Of a DNA stretch of 34,960 nucleotides, positions 18,011-24,709 are shown in pieces. The stretch lies in the UHGV virus genome UHGV-0140617; one strand, given 5' to 3'. The position numbers were made by a program, and so were the translations under genes. The DNA comes from a virus. Within the stretch, counting starts at the first letter, position 1. Each line of letters opens with the position of its first letter. Under the pieces are notes generated by a model. The model was not told the origin of the DNA, searched no databases, and saw nothing but the letters and a program-made list of their open reading frames with translations.

Positions 18011-18231
18011 GCGATCACCTTTGGTTCAAATGAGCGGACGTTGATAGGCTGATCGTATGGAAAAGACCAGTTAAGCCATGTGAAGGTTTTAAGTTCACAC
18101 ATCCCGTCGAACACCTCGCAAGGCTTAATATCGGTATAACTGCAGACGATATGTAATTCGTCACCCTTCGACTGCAAAACAACCGTGTCAGTTTCCCAAT
18201 GTGGAATGAGAAGAGCCAGCCACTTAATCAT
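18007..18231 (-). CDS. Hypothetical protein in lysis cassette
   Basis: 74 aa, ATGA-coupled to endolysin and to the downstream gene. Confidence 0.4.
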   Translation of the reverse strand: MIKWLALLIPHWETDTVVLQSKGDELHIVCSYTDIKPCEVFDGMCELKTFTWLNWSFPYDQPINVRSFEPKVIA

Positions 18232-18845
18232 GAAATCACCGATTTTGCTTTGGTGTAACGTGCACGGCGGTCGTTAATACCGTTTTGTCCACCATTGATG
18301 ATCTGAGTGATGCGAACCAGATCGCCGGAATAGCTCAGGCATCCGCTGGTGGCGTAGAACCATGCAGCTGAACGTGCAGCGTTGATGTCCTTTTCCAGCA
18401 ACTCAGGATTACTGACTAAATCCAGTTTTAATCCCGTTCCGCAGCGGCGGTAATTATCAAGGCCGGTAATCTGAATCAGCCCGCGTCCACGATATTTCCA
18501 CCCATCGCCTGATGCTTTGTTACCGAGGCGATTGCTGTACACCAGATTTGCAATGGCTGGTTGATTGGCTACCTGCCCTTTTTCTTTGTCACGCCCAAGC
18601 ATATAGGCCTGGTAGTTAGTAATTCGGCGTCCAAAGGTGGTCAGCAAAGCGGCTGGGGTGTAGTTGAAGCTCTCCACCAGCGCAGAGAATCCCGCTGATT
18701 CATGTCCTGACTGAGCAATAAACATTGCCTGGTCTTCAGGCTTAACAATGCCGAACTCTTTCATTGCCGCGTCAATGTGCGGAAACCAGCGTGCAGAAAG
18801 CCCGGCGCTGATACCAGCCGCCTGCTGAAATTGTGATTGGTTCAT
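18228..18845 (-). CDS. Endolysin, glycoside hydrolase family 19 (chitinase-like lysozyme)
   Basis: 205 aa with GH19-like motifs (AQSGHESAGF, GRGLIQITG); adjacent to holins. Confidence 0.8.
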   Translation of the reverse strand: MNQSQFQQAAGISAGLSARWFPHIDAAMKEFGIVKPEDQAMFIAQSGHESAGFSALVESFNYTPAALLTTFGRRITNYQAYMLGRDKEKGQVANQPAIANLVYSNRLGNKASGDGWKYRGRGLIQITGLDNYRRCGTGLKLDLVSNPELLEKDINAARSAAWFYATSGCLSYSGDLVRITQIINGGQNGINDRRARYTKAKSVIS

Positions 18846-19126
18846 TATTGCCTCAGATGATCAACCAGGCGTGCCACGTTGCCTCTGACGGCGACCAGCA
18901 CAGACAGGAAAATAATGTTGGCCCCGATAGTGGCCCACGATGAATAAGGGTAGATACCGCACAGATATGCCAGCGGAACCGCGCTATAGATGACCGTAAG
19001 CAGCCACGCCAGGCGAGATATCCATGGTCGATGTCGCGAATCGCCTCGACGATAAAACATCAGGGTCAGCACTACCCCAGCGCAAAGCAGCGCATTGATT
19101 GTTGCCGATGGGTCATTTAGTACCAC
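18845..19126 (-). CDS. Holin-like membrane protein
   Basis: 93 aa, multiple TM segments, immediately upstream of endolysin. Confidence 0.6.
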   Translation of the reverse strand: MVLNDPSATINALLCAGVVLTLMFYRRGDSRHRPWISRLAWLLTVIYSAVPLAYLCGIYPYSSWATIGANIIFLSVLVAVRGNVARLVDHLRQ

Positions 19127-19499
19127 CTGAACCTCCCCGGCGCGTTATCAGCGCCACCAGCGAGCCGACATCCTGATTATTCAGGAACGTCAGGATTTTG
19201 ACAGCTAAAGCAGAAACGATTACGGCACCGATAGCGTCCAGAGGCTTATCACTGTAACCAGTCCAGTCAGCCAGCTTTGAACCCACCAGCCCAGAGCAGA
19301 TTATCCCTGCGATGTAAGACACGACAAAATACGCCAGCCGACGTGCCGCGCTAAGGTCCGAAGCCGTTGCAATGTAAAATACAGCCCCGGCAAATGCGCC
19401 AAACACCACGCCATAATCGGTTCCGGAAACAAATCCATAGACACTGGCTCCCGTCAGGACACCACCAGCCAGCCCAGTACCGGAAATCGGATCGGACAT
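19113..19499 (-). CDS. Holin
   Basis: 128 aa, Gly/Ala-rich TM helices; first gene of the lysis cassette; SD AGAGGGGG. Confidence 0.65.
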   Translation of the reverse strand: MSDPISGTGLAGGVLTGASVYGFVSGTDYGVVFGAFAGAVFYIATASDLSAARRLAYFVVSYIAGIICSGLVGSKLADWTGYSDKPLDAIGAVIVSALAVKILTFLNNQDVGSLVALITRRGGSGGTK

Positions 19500-19546
19500 T
19501 AAGCCCCCTCTTAATTGCTGTGAGTCCTCTCAGAAATGAGGGGAAT

Positions 19547-19571
19547 AAAAAAACCCGTTCGAATGAACGGG
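19547..19571 (-). terminator. Strong intrinsic terminator immediately upstream of the holin (minus strand)
   Basis: cccgtt(19554-19559)/aacggg(19566-19571) 6-bp stem followed on the minus strand by UUUUUUU (plus A7 19547-19553). Confidence 0.7.
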
Positions 19572-20290
19572 CCAGAAAAGGAGAATTTTGCATTACTGAA
19601 GCGTTAACGCGATGCCGGGTGCCTCCCGGTGGGCCTTTGGCTGACAAACCATGACCCGTGAGCACTTTGCATGTCACTCCCTGACATTGTTTACTGTCAG
19701 TTTCACCCCTCCGCTTAGGGGGATTCATCACAACAACTTCAAACGAGAGCTTTTACTGAATGCTCTTTAACATTAGGACCGATAAAGAAAACCTGCAAAC
19801 AAATAGCCCAATGATTTCAAAAGAGTCAGGCTTCACGGGCTGGATTTATCAACAAAGCACGCAGTGAGTGATACCCGTGAGCCTGAAATGAAAAAGGCCA
19901 CGCAAAAGCGCGGCCCTAAGAAGATATATATATTTTGTTAATTCAGCGGAACATCTGGCATGGAGCGATCCAGTGAAGCGTTAATCAACGCCTTAATCGC
20001 GTTACACACCTGATAAAATCCGCCAGGCTGAGATAATAGCCATTATACGATGACCACAGATATGTTGCTCCTGGTAAGATCAGTATATATGCTTGAGTCA
20101 ACATAGTATGTGGAACATAAGTTGCTGTAACTGGACGATACATCGCGCAGATGAGATTAATCACGAATCAAATTTGACATTTGAATCATGACGGTTAAAT
20201 CCGCCTCCCGGGCGTGGCCTGCGGATGTGCGAAGTACTGTACAGAGAGATCGCGCGCCCCAGGTGCAACTAATTAATCATGGGAGAGTTT

Positions 20291-20386
20291 ATGAAAAATC
20301 AACATAGCCTTCATGACTGGAGCACTGGTCTTAAAGCCTCGACATCAACATTTATGTTTATCATGATTTTGGTTTATGTTGTGTGA
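20291..20386 (+). CDS. Candidate small ORF (31 aa, hydrophobic C-terminus)
   Basis: ATG 20291 preceded by GGGAGAG; MKNQHSLHDWSTGLKASTSTFMFIMILVYVV; below the ORF-track size cut-off. Confidence 0.25.
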   Translation: MKNQHSLHDWSTGLKASTSTFMFIMILVYVV

Positions 20387-20636
20387 TGTTGATGACACCA
20401 TCAATGCCCAGCAAGCGCGGTTACTCATAAGAGATTTCACACCACTAACCCCGCTGGGTGTCAGACTGAGATTTTGAGTCTGGTTCGCTACCGGGGGTTA
20501 GGATCTCGTTTCATCAACCCAGAAGACTGATGCTATATCTGATTGAACCAGTTGGTGTTAGATGGCACTTGTTGGACTTGGACCGACACCCAAAATAATC
20601 AATCTGGTTCGTGCCCTGTAAGATAAGAGACTAATA

Positions 20637-20825
20637 TTACTTTCTCAGCACTCCTTCATTCGGGCTGCTTGAAGTATAAGGTGTATAGTTATCAGGTGTA
20701 ATCATTGAAGATTTACAAAAAATACACTTTGCACCAAAGGGATTTTTCTCAGTCACATCAAAATGAGATGTTCTGTACTGTGACCCATGACAACAAGGGC
20801 ACTTAAAATAAATATGAGCAGTCAT
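20637..20825 (-). CDS. Small zinc-ribbon-like protein
   Basis: 62 aa with CPCC-H ... C-IF-C cysteine pairs; in the Q-to-lysis accessory region. Confidence 0.5.
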   Translation of the reverse strand: MTAHIYFKCPCCHGSQYRTSHFDVTEKNPFGAKCIFCKSSMITPDNYTPYTSSSPNEGVLRK

Positions 20826-21247
20826 GATATTAGCCTTTATATGCTACAACATTCACTACCGCAGTGATAACCAGAAGATATATTTTAACTAATAGTTCTT
20901 TTGGTTTTAGCATCAGATTGCAATTCACTTTAAAAGCAATAAAAATGAACATTTCTTATCTGCTTACATAGGGAATCTAAAATAATATAATTTCTTTATA
21001 TTATAACATCAGCGATTTTTGGGATGTTGTTAACTTTTACGAATGCACTTAAGCGTGCAAAAAAACTACAGAGGTAAACAGACAAATGACATTTATAAAA
21101 TAATCATTTCAACTGTTCTATCTAGTGATTAGACTCAGACATCTGTTCAGATCGGTTTGAGCAGATGTCGAGTTTCTGAAAAACCAATATATCTACTCAG
21201 GCTTTCACCGTCTTCGCTATCGTATATTGGCCTCAATCAGAAAAGTA

Positions 21248-21460
21248 TCAGGCAGCTACAACGTTTTCGGCTGACGGCCCTTTTGCACCAGCAGTGATGC
21301 TGAACTCAACTTTTTGGCCTTCATTCAGCGTTTTAAAACCACCACTCTGAATGGCAGAGAAGTGTACAAACACATCTTTACTACCGTTATCAGGGGTAAT
21401 AAAACCAAAACCTTTAGATTCATTAAACCATTTTACTAAACCAGTCATTTTATTAGACAC
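21248..21460 (-). CDS. Cold-shock protein, CspA family (prophage-borne paralog)
   Basis: 70 aa [38 protein letters not shown]... with RNP1/RNP2 motifs; ORF-track start is GTG (21458-21460), alternative ATG at 21446-21448. Confidence 0.9.
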
Positions 21461-21996
21461 AGGTATTTCCTTAAATTCTATGTAGCCTTACGGCGAAAAG
21501 GTTTTCGCACACAATCTAATTAGTAACGATAAGAAGGCTCAAAAGAAAGGATTATCTGTGGATAACGCTTGAGATGAGAACTGCTTTACTAAACCGCTTT
21601 AATGGGTCTGTGTACCTAACCAACCACTCATTAATCACACAACCCACAAACAATAGCAAGTTATTTTTTCATTAAATTGTTCGGAACATCTTAGAAATGG
21701 ATGCCGTGACAGCATAATCAGTGATTTTTCCCCTCGATAACATATGAGTGATCGCCTCTGTACGAGCAGAAACAGAATACATCAGTTTTATCAATCACCT
21801 ATAAAGAACATTCAACCACTCTGAAAAAATCCAGTAATGAGTTTTTTGTTCTATGCTTTCGTAGTCCATGGAATTGGTGGTAACAAAGGTAACCATTTCA
21901 TCCAACTCAAAAACAATATTTACAAAACTATGCTACTTTTATTTCATATATGTGTATTATTAGGTAAAGGAAATTAGAACTTTCAAAGGAGAAAAA

Positions 21997-22383: not shown

Positions 22384-22409
22384 GAAAACAAAACCCCGCC
22401 GAGGCAGGG
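22384..22409 (-). terminator. Terminator-like hairpin about 45-60 nt downstream of the putative late promoter
   Basis: Minus-sense CCCUGCC..GGCGGGG stem followed by UUUUGUUUUCC. Confidence 0.4.
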
Positions 22410-22524: not shown

Positions 22525-23340
22525 TCAATAAGTTGTTGCTTTCTCAAATTCTGATGATGCCTGACGCTCTCCCTTGTGCAGTGCATCAACCAACATTTCA
22601 TAGAATGGCTTCCAGTTACGAGACCATGAGGACTGATGGAGATCCGGCAGACGTTTAAGGATAGCCCGGTGAACGGTCGCAGATGACACTCTGGAATACC
22701 CCTCGCCGCTGCAACGCTCACACGTTTTGAAAACCGGTGCGCCGCGGTCTTTTGTCGCGATGCGGTCCAGTACCTCGCCCTTTCCACCACAACGGCAGCG
22801 GGCGCTGATTGTTCCCTTGCCTTCGCAACTATCACAGACGGCCGGTACAACCTCTGTTACCTCAGTCCAGTGCTCCCAGTCAGACGGACGAACGGCACGA
22901 GAGCGGTTAGCCCAATATGGTGCTTTACCCCATGGGTACGAAACCTTACGGGTGACCTGTTCGCGGGTTGTCCGTCCGGTACCATTGCAGCTGTGACACG
23001 TCACGCTGGTAGCCGCCGAACGAGAGTATTCAGCAAAGGCAAATTGCGCCAGCATCAGCATGCACCATCCCAACTCACCACCGGCTGCTTTGCGCACGTT
23101 CTTTGGTGCTGTCTCCATTGCGTGGCGTGCCAGCGCCTGAACCGCAAGTTGCTCATCGCTTTTGCTGATCCCGGTTTTACCAAAGAAAGCGGACAGACCA
23201 AAACGCGCGCGGCTGCTGGTCGTACCGATGGCTACCATAACATCGGTTCCGGTGAGGCGATCCGGAGAGGTGCCTTTCACGCTGTCGCTGATGTGCATCC
23301 CCTGAGGGCTGAAATGTTTGAGTGATGATTCCAACTTCAT
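22525..23340 (-). CDS. Q: Late-gene antiterminator Q-like protein
   Basis: 271 aa from ATG 23338-23340 (MKLESSLKHF...) with SD GAGGA; CxxC zinc-binding pairs (CHSCNGTG, CDSCEGKG, CERCSGEG); position between replication genes and the lysis region. The longer track ORF is an N-terminal over-extension. Confidence 0.75.
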   Translation of the reverse strand: MKLESSLKHFSPQGMHISDSVKGTSPDRLTGTDVMVAIGTTSSRARFGLSAFFGKTGISKSDEQLAVQALARHAMETAPKNVRKAAGGELGWCMLMLAQFAFAEYSRSAATSVTCHSCNGTGRTTREQVTRKVSYPWGKAPYWANRSRAVRPSDWEHWTEVTEVVPAVCDSCEGKGTISARCRCGGKGEVLDRIATKDRGAPVFKTCERCSGEGYSRVSSATVHRAILKRLPDLHQSSWSRNWKPFYEMLVDALHKGERQASSEFEKATTY

Positions 23341-23350
23341 GATAATTTCC

Positions 23351-24709
23351 TCAGGCTTTTGCATACCGACGCGGTTGTGATTTTTGCTGCGAGGCTGATT
23401 TTGATTTCGCTTCTTCCTGGTCAATCGGCAGAAAATGCCCGTTGTAGAAACGGCGGTACACGGTTCCAAGAACGCCGTTACGCTGTTTGGTGATGTTAAT
23501 TTCCGCGATCCCTTTCGCCGGCGATTCGGGGTTATACACTTCATCGCGATAGAGCATCATGATGATGTCAGCATCCGCCTCAATTTCGCCGGAGTTCTTC
23601 AGGTCAGAGTTCATGGGACGTTTATTCGGTCGGGATTCCACGCCTCTGGAAAGCTGGCTCAGGGCCAGAACGGGAGTGCGGTTTGTTTTGGCAAGTCGCT
23701 TTAATCCCTTCGACAGTTCACCCACCGCGAGGTCATAGCGTGCCGTGCTCTGGATCTTAATGAGTAACAGATAATCGATAACCACCAGCGCGGTTTCTGG
23801 ATGAGAAATCTGATGACTGGTTGCCGTTTGCTCGATCTGCTCAAGCGTCAGATCTGTGGCATCGACCATCCAGATATTGCGCCCGGTAAGATGCCCGATA
23901 CCTGTAGATAACCTTGCCCAGTCTTCATCTTCAAACTTCGCGGCTGCTTTGAGCCTGGACACTGACATACCACCAGCAGCAGATACCATTCGCTCGCCAA
24001 TCTGGATGTTGGCCATCTCCATGCTGAAAAACAGTACGCCATGCCCCTGCTCTGATACCTTATCGATAATGTCCAGTGCCAGCTCGGTTTTCCCCATCGA
24101 CGGACGAGCCGCGATGAAGACCAGATCTGTCGGTTCAATGCCGCCGGTTTTAGCGTCCAGTTCTTCAATGCCGGTCATCAGCGGTTTGGCCTCTTCCAGC
24201 CCCTGATTTCTTGCATCTACCCGGTCAATTACTGCAGGTAAGATTTCATCAATATGCACAGGTTGAACGGTATCAGGAGTGAGTGAAATTGAAGCCATGG
24301 CCTCCTGCGCGGCTTTCAACGCTTCGACTGCGTTTTCACCATTGGCAGCATTGCGAATGCCAGCCAACGCTGTCTCGATTACAGCCTCGGCGTCACGAAC
24401 GGCAGCATTACGTTCCAGTGTGGAAACGTAATACGTCAGAGCTGATTTAGCCCATGCGATACGGCTTGACTCGAGTATCGTTGCGCTGTGTTCTGGCATG
24501 ATCTCACACAGCAACAGCGGATCTATCACTCCGGTCCCCCGAGCCTGACGACAAATGCCGGAATATATTTCACGGTACTGACGGACAGAGAATGCGCTCG
24601 CCGGCATACGGGAAAGAATGCCCAGAACCTCAGGATCGGTATTGCGCAGAAAAATCGCGCCAATTACCGCACCTTCCAGATCATTATTTTTCCATACCGG
24701 AGTCATCAT
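23351..24709 (-). CDS. Replicative DNA helicase (DnaB family)
   Basis: 452 aa; Walker A ARPSMGKT, and RecA-like core motifs. Confidence 0.9.
   Translation of the reverse strand: MMTPVWKNNDLEGAVIGAIFLRNTDPEVLGILSRMPASAFSVRQYREIYSGICRQARGTGVIDPLLLCEIMPEHSATILESSRIAWAKSALTYYVSTLERNAAVRDAEAVIETALAGIRNAANGENAVEALKAAQEAMASISLTPDTVQPVHIDEILPAVIDRVDARNQGLEEAKPLMTGIEELDAKTGGIEPTDLVFIAARPSMGKTELALDIIDKVSEQGHGVLFFSMEMANIQIGERMVSAAGGMSVSRLKAAAKFEDEDWARLSTGIGHLTGRNIWMVDATDLTLEQIEQTATSHQISHPETALVVIDYLLLIKIQSTARYDLAVGELSKGLKRLAKTNRTPVLALSQLSRGVESRPNKRPMNSDLKNSGEIEADADIIMMLYRDEVYNPESPAKGIAEINITKQRNGVLGTVYRRFYNGHFLPIDQEEAKSKSASQQKSQPRRYAKA

Follow-up and report, generated by a model that had tools for sequence, protein, structure and literature searches.

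Read-through of several terminators by RNA polymerase carrying a Q protein is textbook knowledge for lambdoid phages, and genes of Hfq-binding small RNAs (sRNAs) that are bounded by terminators have been on record since 2014 in lambdoid prophages, where they lie between the late promoter and the lysis genes. The arrangement in which an sRNA terminator stands in the late leader before the lysis genes is already known from prophages of E. coli and Salmonella.

STnc100 is present in many copies in the prophages of Salmonella LT2 and EHEC; transcription occurs in EHEC without induction, and one of the copies has been detected by northern blot (PMC5331693). One STnc100 copy lies 75 nt downstream of stx2B (PMC12370729), and this copy overlaps the Hfq-binding EcOnc27/sRNA103 of EHEC (PMC12711010, PMC7873438). 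According to a review, at least eight Sakai prophages have pairs of Hfq-binding sRNAs located after the late promoter and ahead of the lysis genes, for a reason described as unclear (PMC7873438). RpoD and RpoN ChIP-exo patterns have been examined at the STnc100 promoter regions of LT2 (PMC10794520). In addition, STnc100 is structurally related to PasD of EPEC, and pasA, pasC, and pasD1 "typically" directly adjoin the holin/lysozyme operon (bioRxiv 10.64898/2026.05.13.724894).

The DNA analyzed here, referred to as the window, is the whole 34,960-nt stretch of virus genome UHGV-0140617. The intrinsic terminator in front of its holin gene, designated T2, is likely to be the Rho-independent terminator of a co-directional STnc100-family prophage sRNA gene in the late-operon leader of a lambdoid prophage from an Enterobacter/Citrobacter-like host. 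Discrete Hfq-associated expression is known for the E. coli and Salmonella copies of STnc100 and is predicted here by analogy. The annotation of the locus is corrected accordingly in that the sRNA gene is identified, a further terminator (T1) is located, and the predicted late promoter pR' and terminator tR' are placed beside the Q gene (Table 1).

Table 1. Coordinates of the features from the Q gene to the endolysin gene in the window.
Feature	Coordinates	Strand	Sequence, score, or basis
Antiterminator Q gene, 271 aa from the likely start MKLESS...	22525-23340	-	PF03589, E 3e-54
Late promoter pR' (predicted)	22483-22454	-	TTGACU 22483-22478, 18 nt, UAUGCU 22459-22454; promoter scan
-10-like GAUUAU-GGG	22450-22442	-	conserved; candidate pause/Q-loading element
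tR' (predicted), first terminator after pR'	22413-22385	-	dG -17.0
csp moron with cspA thermoregulator 5'UTR	21176-21624; CDS 21248-21460	-	RF01766
YmcF-like zinc-ribbon gene (moron)	20637-20825	-	domain search
T1, intrinsic terminator	19917-19887	-	dG -18.9 kcal/mol, z -4.4; stronger than T2
Conserved leader module after T1, ~70 nt	19885-19819	-	comparison with other phages
Candidate sigma-70 promoter of the sRNA	19798-19770	-	TTGCAG, 17 nt, TAAUGU; weak match, inferred
STnc100-family sRNA gene	19759-19542	-	full-length Rfam RF02076 match
STnc100 structured core	19731-19609	-	fold and covariation
Core helix P1	GUGAUG 19731-19726 with CAUCGC 19614-19609	-	compensatory changes
Core helix P2 (hairpin)	19722-19706	-	fold
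Core pseudoknot	CUGACA 19700-19695 with UGUCAG 19646-19641 (in helix B loop)	-	complementarity test
Core helix B	GGGUC 19657-19653 / GGCCC 19635-19631	-	fold
Core helix P4	19629-19615	-	CCGGG-AGGCA-CCCGG; abuts the 3' strand of P1
T2, intrinsic terminator	19573-19547	-	consensus scan, fold, Rfam alignment
Holin leader	19546-19500	-	AUUCCCCUC...UGAGAGGACUCA...GAGGGGG; conserved; travels with the holin
Holin, Phage_holin_8 (PF16931)	19499-19113	-	E 6e-34
Second holin-like protein (PF05449)	18845-19126	-	domain search
GH19 endolysin	18228-18845	-	domain search

Structure of the terminator preceding the holin

T2 is composed of the 5' stem strand GGCCCGUUC, the loop AUUC, and the 3' strand GAACGGGUU (19573-19552 on the minus strand), and a tract of exactly seven U residues (19553-19547) comes directly after the stem. 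The minus strand reads ...cuuuucuGGCCCGUUCauucGAACGGGUUUUUUUauuccccuc...AUG here and, in a second extract, cuuuucuGGCCCGUUCauucGAACGGGUUUUUUUauuCCCCUC...GAGGGGGcuuaAUG. The core stem CCCGUUC/GAACGGG has seven Watson-Crick base pairs (19571-19565 with 19560-19554) and grows to nine pairs through one G-C and one G-U; the consensus scan scored T2 with nine pairs, five of which are G-C. Folded alone, T2 has a dG of -13.1 kcal/mol and a z of -4.2, and 1 of 200 shuffles was equally stable. An earlier note on this DNA had correctly located a strong intrinsic terminator with a U7 tract on the late strand before the holin, although the 6-bp stem it described is shorter than the stem found here.

Between the last U of T2 and the holin ATG (19499) lie 47 nt, in agreement with the distance of about 50 nt given earlier. 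Since these 47 nt leave no room for a promoter, transcription of the holin must cross T2, as had been proposed for late transcription. No T run follows the T2 hairpin on the plus strand, where CCAGAAAAGG stands instead, and T2 is therefore a one-way terminator for the late strand. It has a G+C-rich hairpin followed at once by a U tract, the form of an intrinsic terminator, and judged by its sequence it is predicted to be a real transcription terminator at which termination would take place.

The number of terminator-like patterns is, on its own, weak evidence for T2. The surrounding 7-kb region has 12 such sites against 7.0 ± 2.8 expected from shuffles, an excess of only about 1.7-fold, which would suit a chance hairpin beside a T run without any function. 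This reading is effectively refuted by the conservation data and is given next to no weight: against it stand the z of -4.2, the alignment to an Rfam model, and a position that is conserved, with turnover of the sequence, in two independent samples. T2 is more than chance because its position is kept among relatives and because it is aligned to the terminator helix of STnc100.

The STnc100-family small RNA gene

The Rfam scan of the window returned two matches above the curated thresholds, namely the cspA thermoregulator of the csp moron and STnc100 (RF02076). The STnc100 match extends over model positions 1-206 of 206 without truncation and scores 76.8 bits (E 7e-15), the curated gathering score being 47 bits. 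Model positions 176-197, which form the last helix, align with high posterior probability to 19573-19552, which is T2, with the U tail included; an STnc100-family sRNA gene accordingly has T2 as its 3' end. For the STnc100 region as a whole, the folding energy is -76 kcal/mol (z -3.15). The window has all of the conserved helices of the family, namely P1, the hairpins CCCCU/AGGGG and CCGGG-AGGCA-CCCGG, and helix B. The gene is placed in a lambdoid late region on the late-gene strand, with Q upstream and holin and endolysin downstream, and its relatives are placed likewise. Matches of other Rfam families at T2 (anti-hemB, Trp leader) were far below their gathering scores and were taken as generic terminator resemblance. 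For an antisense partner of the AgvB/AsxR type, no Rfam match was found in the window.

The locus thus resembles known STnc100 copies in its full-length match, its helices, the position of its 3' terminator, and its place on the late strand between Q and the lysis genes. It differs from them in a longer variable region, with 95 nt between GAAUCC and the P4 motif, in a weak promoter approximately 44 nt upstream of P1, in another terminator sequence, and in a non-E. coli host. Moreover, the unit is fused directly to the Phage_holin_8 leader, which is seen in only two of 64 holin contexts.

The upstream signal is a candidate that the consensus scan did not call; its hexamers are kept in the related locus L076 and in Chris1 (TAAAGT). 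Many relatives have instead a near-consensus TTGACn-17-TAAATT promoter that ends about 8 nt before P1. With its weak candidate promoter, this copy of STnc100 could therefore be poorly expressed, or produced mainly from read-through and processing.

The core of STnc100 is well preserved in viruses, and the exact 19-mer CACCGGGAGGCACCCGGCA occurs in more than 120 viral contigs. Compensatory changes in P1 among relatives include GAUG/CAUC vs. GGUG/CACC together with extensions of the helix. The core is modeled as a compact four-helix RNA with near-invariant loops, and such an architecture is typical for RNAs that bind proteins or ligands or are processed, such as a tRNA-like junction that RNase P or RNase E cleaves.

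The loop of helix B is complementary to a segment that lies 1-4 nt after P2, which would give an H-type pseudoknot. Complementarity of cognate and non-cognate combinations was compared in 41 representatives, among which 24 different loops occur; the mean number of contiguous base pairs is 6.7 for cognate combinations of loop and segment vs. 4.4 for non-cognate ones, and none of 5000 permutations reached the cognate mean. A column-based covariation analysis on a MAFFT alignment was dropped, as differences in loop length shifted the register. The pseudoknot is absent from the RF02076 structure line, and RNAalifold is the only structure prediction mentioned in the cited STnc100 papers. If a covarying pseudoknot in this near-invariant core is true, the widespread STnc100/PasD family deserves structural and functional work beyond target prediction.

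In many phages, the lysis genes are immediately preceded on the late transcript by the core, which is in some cases repeated in tandem. It is conceivable, although rather doubtful, that T2 is the output end of more than a base-pairing sRNA: besides any role in trans, the core could influence in cis how the lysis mRNA is processed or translated, or how stable it is, once Q read-through has occurred. A tRNA or tmRNA identity of the core was rejected, as ARAGORN found none in the window and no tRNA or tmRNA model reached E <= 1 in 19300-20700.

In the viral contigs L025 (458-982), L038 (1811-2335), and L075 (4464-4989), three STnc100-like units follow one another head to tail, the repeat period being about 253 nt. 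In each array, the first and second units have a terminator each, and all three have separate upstream regions.

Conservation of a terminator at this position

Among 121 distinct relatives of the STnc100 core, 74 have a strong hairpin with a T tract downstream on the same strand, at 36-128 nt (median 52), against 24 of 121 in the antisense control. These terminators comprise 37 distinct hairpin sequences, which fall by inspection into roughly a dozen unrelated classes. The position and function of the terminator are thus kept while its sequence turns over, which is the strongest indication available that they function as terminators. The genes on the 3' side of the units vary as well: 25 encode an esterase of the NanS-p type, 12 the holin family of the window, and seven P21-S type holins, with single cases of HP1-type, lambda-S type, and LydA-type holins.

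This variation bears on the view that the unit is an attenuator or riboswitch, with the pseudoknotted core as sensor and T2 as the expression platform that controls the holin in cis. The layout of a conserved multi-helix pseudoknotted RNA, a linker, an intrinsic terminator, and a gene would agree with it, and pairing would be possible in the window between the 5' strand of helix B (ACGGGUC) and the 5' half of T2 (GGCCCGU). However, unrelated terminators stand behind a near-invariant core that has no matching changes, so that there is no conserved antiterminator; the downstream neighbor may be an esterase, a holin of any of five families, or a tandem copy of the RNA; the Rfam scan gave no riboswitch or leader family at threshold; and discrete Hfq-bound RNAs of the STnc100 family are reported in the literature. 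A riboswitch-like antiterminator was rejected, as no alternative pairing is conserved across the terminator classes, and regulation of this kind is considered very unlikely.

The position can also be viewed from the side of the holin. For loci gathered by way of the RNA motif or Q, homologues of this holin have 14 distinct upstream regions, 12 of which contain a terminator that ends 48-55 nt before the ATG. When the holin alone served as the entry point, an independent sample of 80 viral loci gave 64 distinct upstream regions; 30 of these have a terminator at 48-56 nt (26 distinct hairpins), and 34 do not. Approximately 10 further regions have a T1-type terminator with the conserved leader module at about 120 nt, and 15 of the 64 have no terminator within 400 nt under the criteria used. 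A guard terminator before the holin is thus common and not essential. The STnc100 core was found within 130 nt of the holin in only two of the 64 regions. In the window, the position before the holin is occupied by the terminator of the sRNA itself, which is the less common situation, and T2 belongs in a sense to both the sRNA and the holin.

HK639 (HM208537) shares the holin family and the conserved leader with the window; a terminator lies about 50 nt ahead of its holin ATG, and it also has an upstream STnc100 unit. Its GenBank record has four annotated terminators from Q to the holin, of which the third ends the STnc100 unit and the fourth lies just before the holin. The terminator of STnc100 and the one guarding the holin are therefore separate in HK639, about 180 nt apart, whereas a single terminator serves for both in the window.

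A joint of the phage mosaic was found in the T tract (19556-19541), where homology to the sRNA module ends and homology to the holin module begins. Locus L076 is 92% identical to the window over 19917-19541, which takes in T1, the spacer, the sRNA, and the T2 hairpin, and has a different holin (Phage_holin_2_3) 50 nt after the STnc100 terminator. The homology with L076 and Chris1 crosses the T2 hairpin and ends in or just after the T tract (19541-19544), while in Chris1, L042, HK639, Gifsy-1, and about 250 complete E. coli genomes, that of the holin module sets in within the T tract, at about 19552-19556. Joints of phage mosaics are thereby shown to fall in the T tract of such terminators. None of the complete E. 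coli genomes covers at least 80% of 19480-19780, and an E. coli origin of the window was rejected since no complete E. coli genome holds the sRNA-holin arrangement.

These comparisons weigh on the earlier proposal that T2 is a dedicated Q-gated terminator, which gates the lysis cassette and insulates it from the csp and zinc-ribbon morons; on this view, any RNA that ends at T2 would be a by-product. About half of the distinct holin contexts have a terminator at 48-56 nt even where no STnc100 core is nearby, as in L110, L079, L131, and 28 of the 30 contexts of the independent sample, and such contexts point to selection for a guard terminator as such; the lack of any possible promoter between T2 and the ATG would fit as well. 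Against this, the T2 hairpin belongs to the sRNA module, as homology with L076 and Chris1 runs through it and that of the holin begins only in the T tract. The stronger T1 upstream meets the moron transcripts first, and the holin regions that are free of a terminator over 400 nt also speak against a gate. A dedicated lysis gate is accordingly judged unlikely: T2 is the 3' end of the sRNA, and L076 combines the same sRNA and terminator with another holin.

The Q gene, the late promoter, and tR'

The Q gene of the window was delimited by comparison. The mechanical ORF (339 aa, 22525-23544) overlaps the 3' end of a DnaB-like helicase gene (23351-24709), and the Q protein of HK225, which also has 271 aa and is 38% identical over the full length, makes 23340 the likely start. 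The best match to Q comes from an Enterobacter MAG (89%).

The predicted pR' lies immediately after the Q stop codon, approximately 2.9 kb upstream of T2. The window was set beside 22 loci of Q orthologues (L127-L148) that represent various enterobacterial genera, and the layout of promoter, -10-like element, and terminator after Q recurs in 19 of the 23 sequences, the window included. The -10 hexamer of pR' is TATGCT in 18 of these 19 and TATGAT in one, and the spacer (…GTCCTG) is conserved. tR' keeps its position and varies in sequence among the orthologue loci; in the window, its hairpin (22413-22391) is followed by UUUUGUUUU. The Q gene with its adjoining conserved promoter, -10-like element, and terminator has the composition of a Q-controlled late operon, and this layout is the signature that would be expected of pR', a Q-loading or pause region, and tR'. 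The orthologue loci have one to four further strong terminators on the same strand within the next few kilobases; late leaders with multiple terminators are the rule in this group.

The -10-like hexamer and the GG after pR' make up a candidate Q-binding or pause element of this PF03589 Q subgroup.

The place of tR', tens to hundreds of nucleotides from the Q-adjacent promoter, is taken by the element at 22413-22385 and not by T2. The earlier note had recognized a terminator there (22384-22409), which is identified here as tR' by its conserved position after pR'. It had counted two terminators between Q and the holin; there are three strong ones, tR', T1, and T2, and T1 had been missed.

Short RNAs ended by an intrinsic terminator are also formed in the late leaders of lambda and Stx phages (6S RNA and StxS, from pR'-tR'), where the terminator must likewise be crossed by Q-modified polymerase and the RNA then becomes part of the late mRNA. 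The window differs in that it has its own pR'-tR' beside Q (22483-22385), with T2 lying 2.9 kb further on and not being the first terminator. It is highly improbable that the STnc100 unit is itself the real late leader, its own promoter being pR', T2 being tR', and Q acting there. Its transcript of about 200 nt does resemble the pR'-tR' RNA of lambda (194-nt 6S RNA), and many relatives have a strong TTGACn-17-TAAATT promoter right before the core; yet the promoter, -10-like element, and terminator that follow the Q stop codon are kept in 19 of the 23 Q loci compared, the window among them, and the STnc100 core is found downstream in only seven of the 22 orthologue loci. Furthermore, STnc100 lies downstream of stx2B in Stx2 phages, in which pR'-tR' (StxS) lies upstream of stx (PMC12370729, PMC7547250), and HK639 has an annotated terminator right after Q besides its STnc100 unit. 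The conserved Q-adjacent promoter and the position in stx phages led to the rejection of the STnc100 unit as a true pR'-tR' transcript.

T1, the leader module, and the morons

On the minus strand from pR' toward the holin, tR' is followed by an ORF that is overlapped by a KTSC gene on the opposite strand, by csp, and by the YmcF-like gene; then come a stretch of about 700 nt that has no convincing gene, T1, the ~70-nt module, the sRNA with T2, and the holin leader. No canonical terminator was found after csp or the YmcF-like gene, and T1 is thus the first strong stop for the transcripts of these morons. The insulation of the lysis genes from csp and zinc-ribbon transcripts, which the earlier note had assigned to T2, stands as a shared role, with T1 and not T2 as the first barrier. 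T2 would mainly stop transcription that starts between T1 and T2, together with any leak through T1.

Terminators homologous to T1 precede the same ~70-nt module in HK225, Gifsy-2, and Chris1. The sequence of the module, GGCUCACGGG...CCCGUGAAGCCUGA, may form a long hairpin and follows T1-type terminators. It stands directly upstream of the start of a holin or a small gene in HK225, Gifsy-2, L051, and L112, and it is found twice in Chris1. As it stands in front of holins, the module is unlikely to be a constitutive promoter.

The 5'UTR of csp is a full-length match to RF01766 (200.9 bits). In the gene-poor 700 nt between the YmcF-like gene and T1, a 35-aa ORF (20279-20386) runs on the plus strand, antisense to the late strand. 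Its C-terminus is hydrophobic (…STFMFIMILVYVV), and the ORF may encode a small membrane peptide or may be meaningless. At 20425-20520, a long hairpin was dismissed as not significant (z 0.30).

Proposed mechanism in the lysogen and after induction

In the lysogen, transcription that begins after T1, probably at the weak promoter 19798-19770, or that leaks past T1 would end at T2 and give an sRNA of approximately 215-220 nt with a hairpin and an oligo-U 3' end. The same termination would keep RNA polymerase out of the lethal holin-endolysin cassette 47 nt further on. The unit between T1 and T2 would thus behave as a moron with a structured sRNA as its cargo. It is similar to moron cassettes of promoter, gene, and terminator in being an autonomous unit between Q and the lysis genes that would be expressed from the prophage, and it differs from them in that the cargo is a structured non-coding RNA and not a protein gene. 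This part of the most likely mechanism is drawn from the family membership, the conservation, and the published expression of relatives.

After induction, Q would load onto the polymerase at pR', and the modified polymerase would cross tR', T1, and T2 in turn. The sRNA sequence would, after read-through, be part of the 5' leader of the lysis mRNA. With a Q gene and its conserved adjoining promoter and terminator 2.9 kb upstream, Q-modified read-through is the natural model, and it is expected by analogy with the established behavior of the lambdoid Q proteins of lambda, 82, and 21. We infer that termination at T2, sRNA expression with Hfq binding, and Q-dependent read-through all take place in this host.

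The holin leader

The 5' CCCCUC of the holin leader is able to pair with the Shine-Dalgarno sequence GAGGGGG, with a UGAG-AGGA-CUCA hairpin in between. Sequestration of the Shine-Dalgarno sequence in this way appears in the MFE structure; it was set aside, as the z of -0.11 is no better than that of shuffles and the paired bases are invariant. The leader is kept across holin homologues of 53-99% identity.
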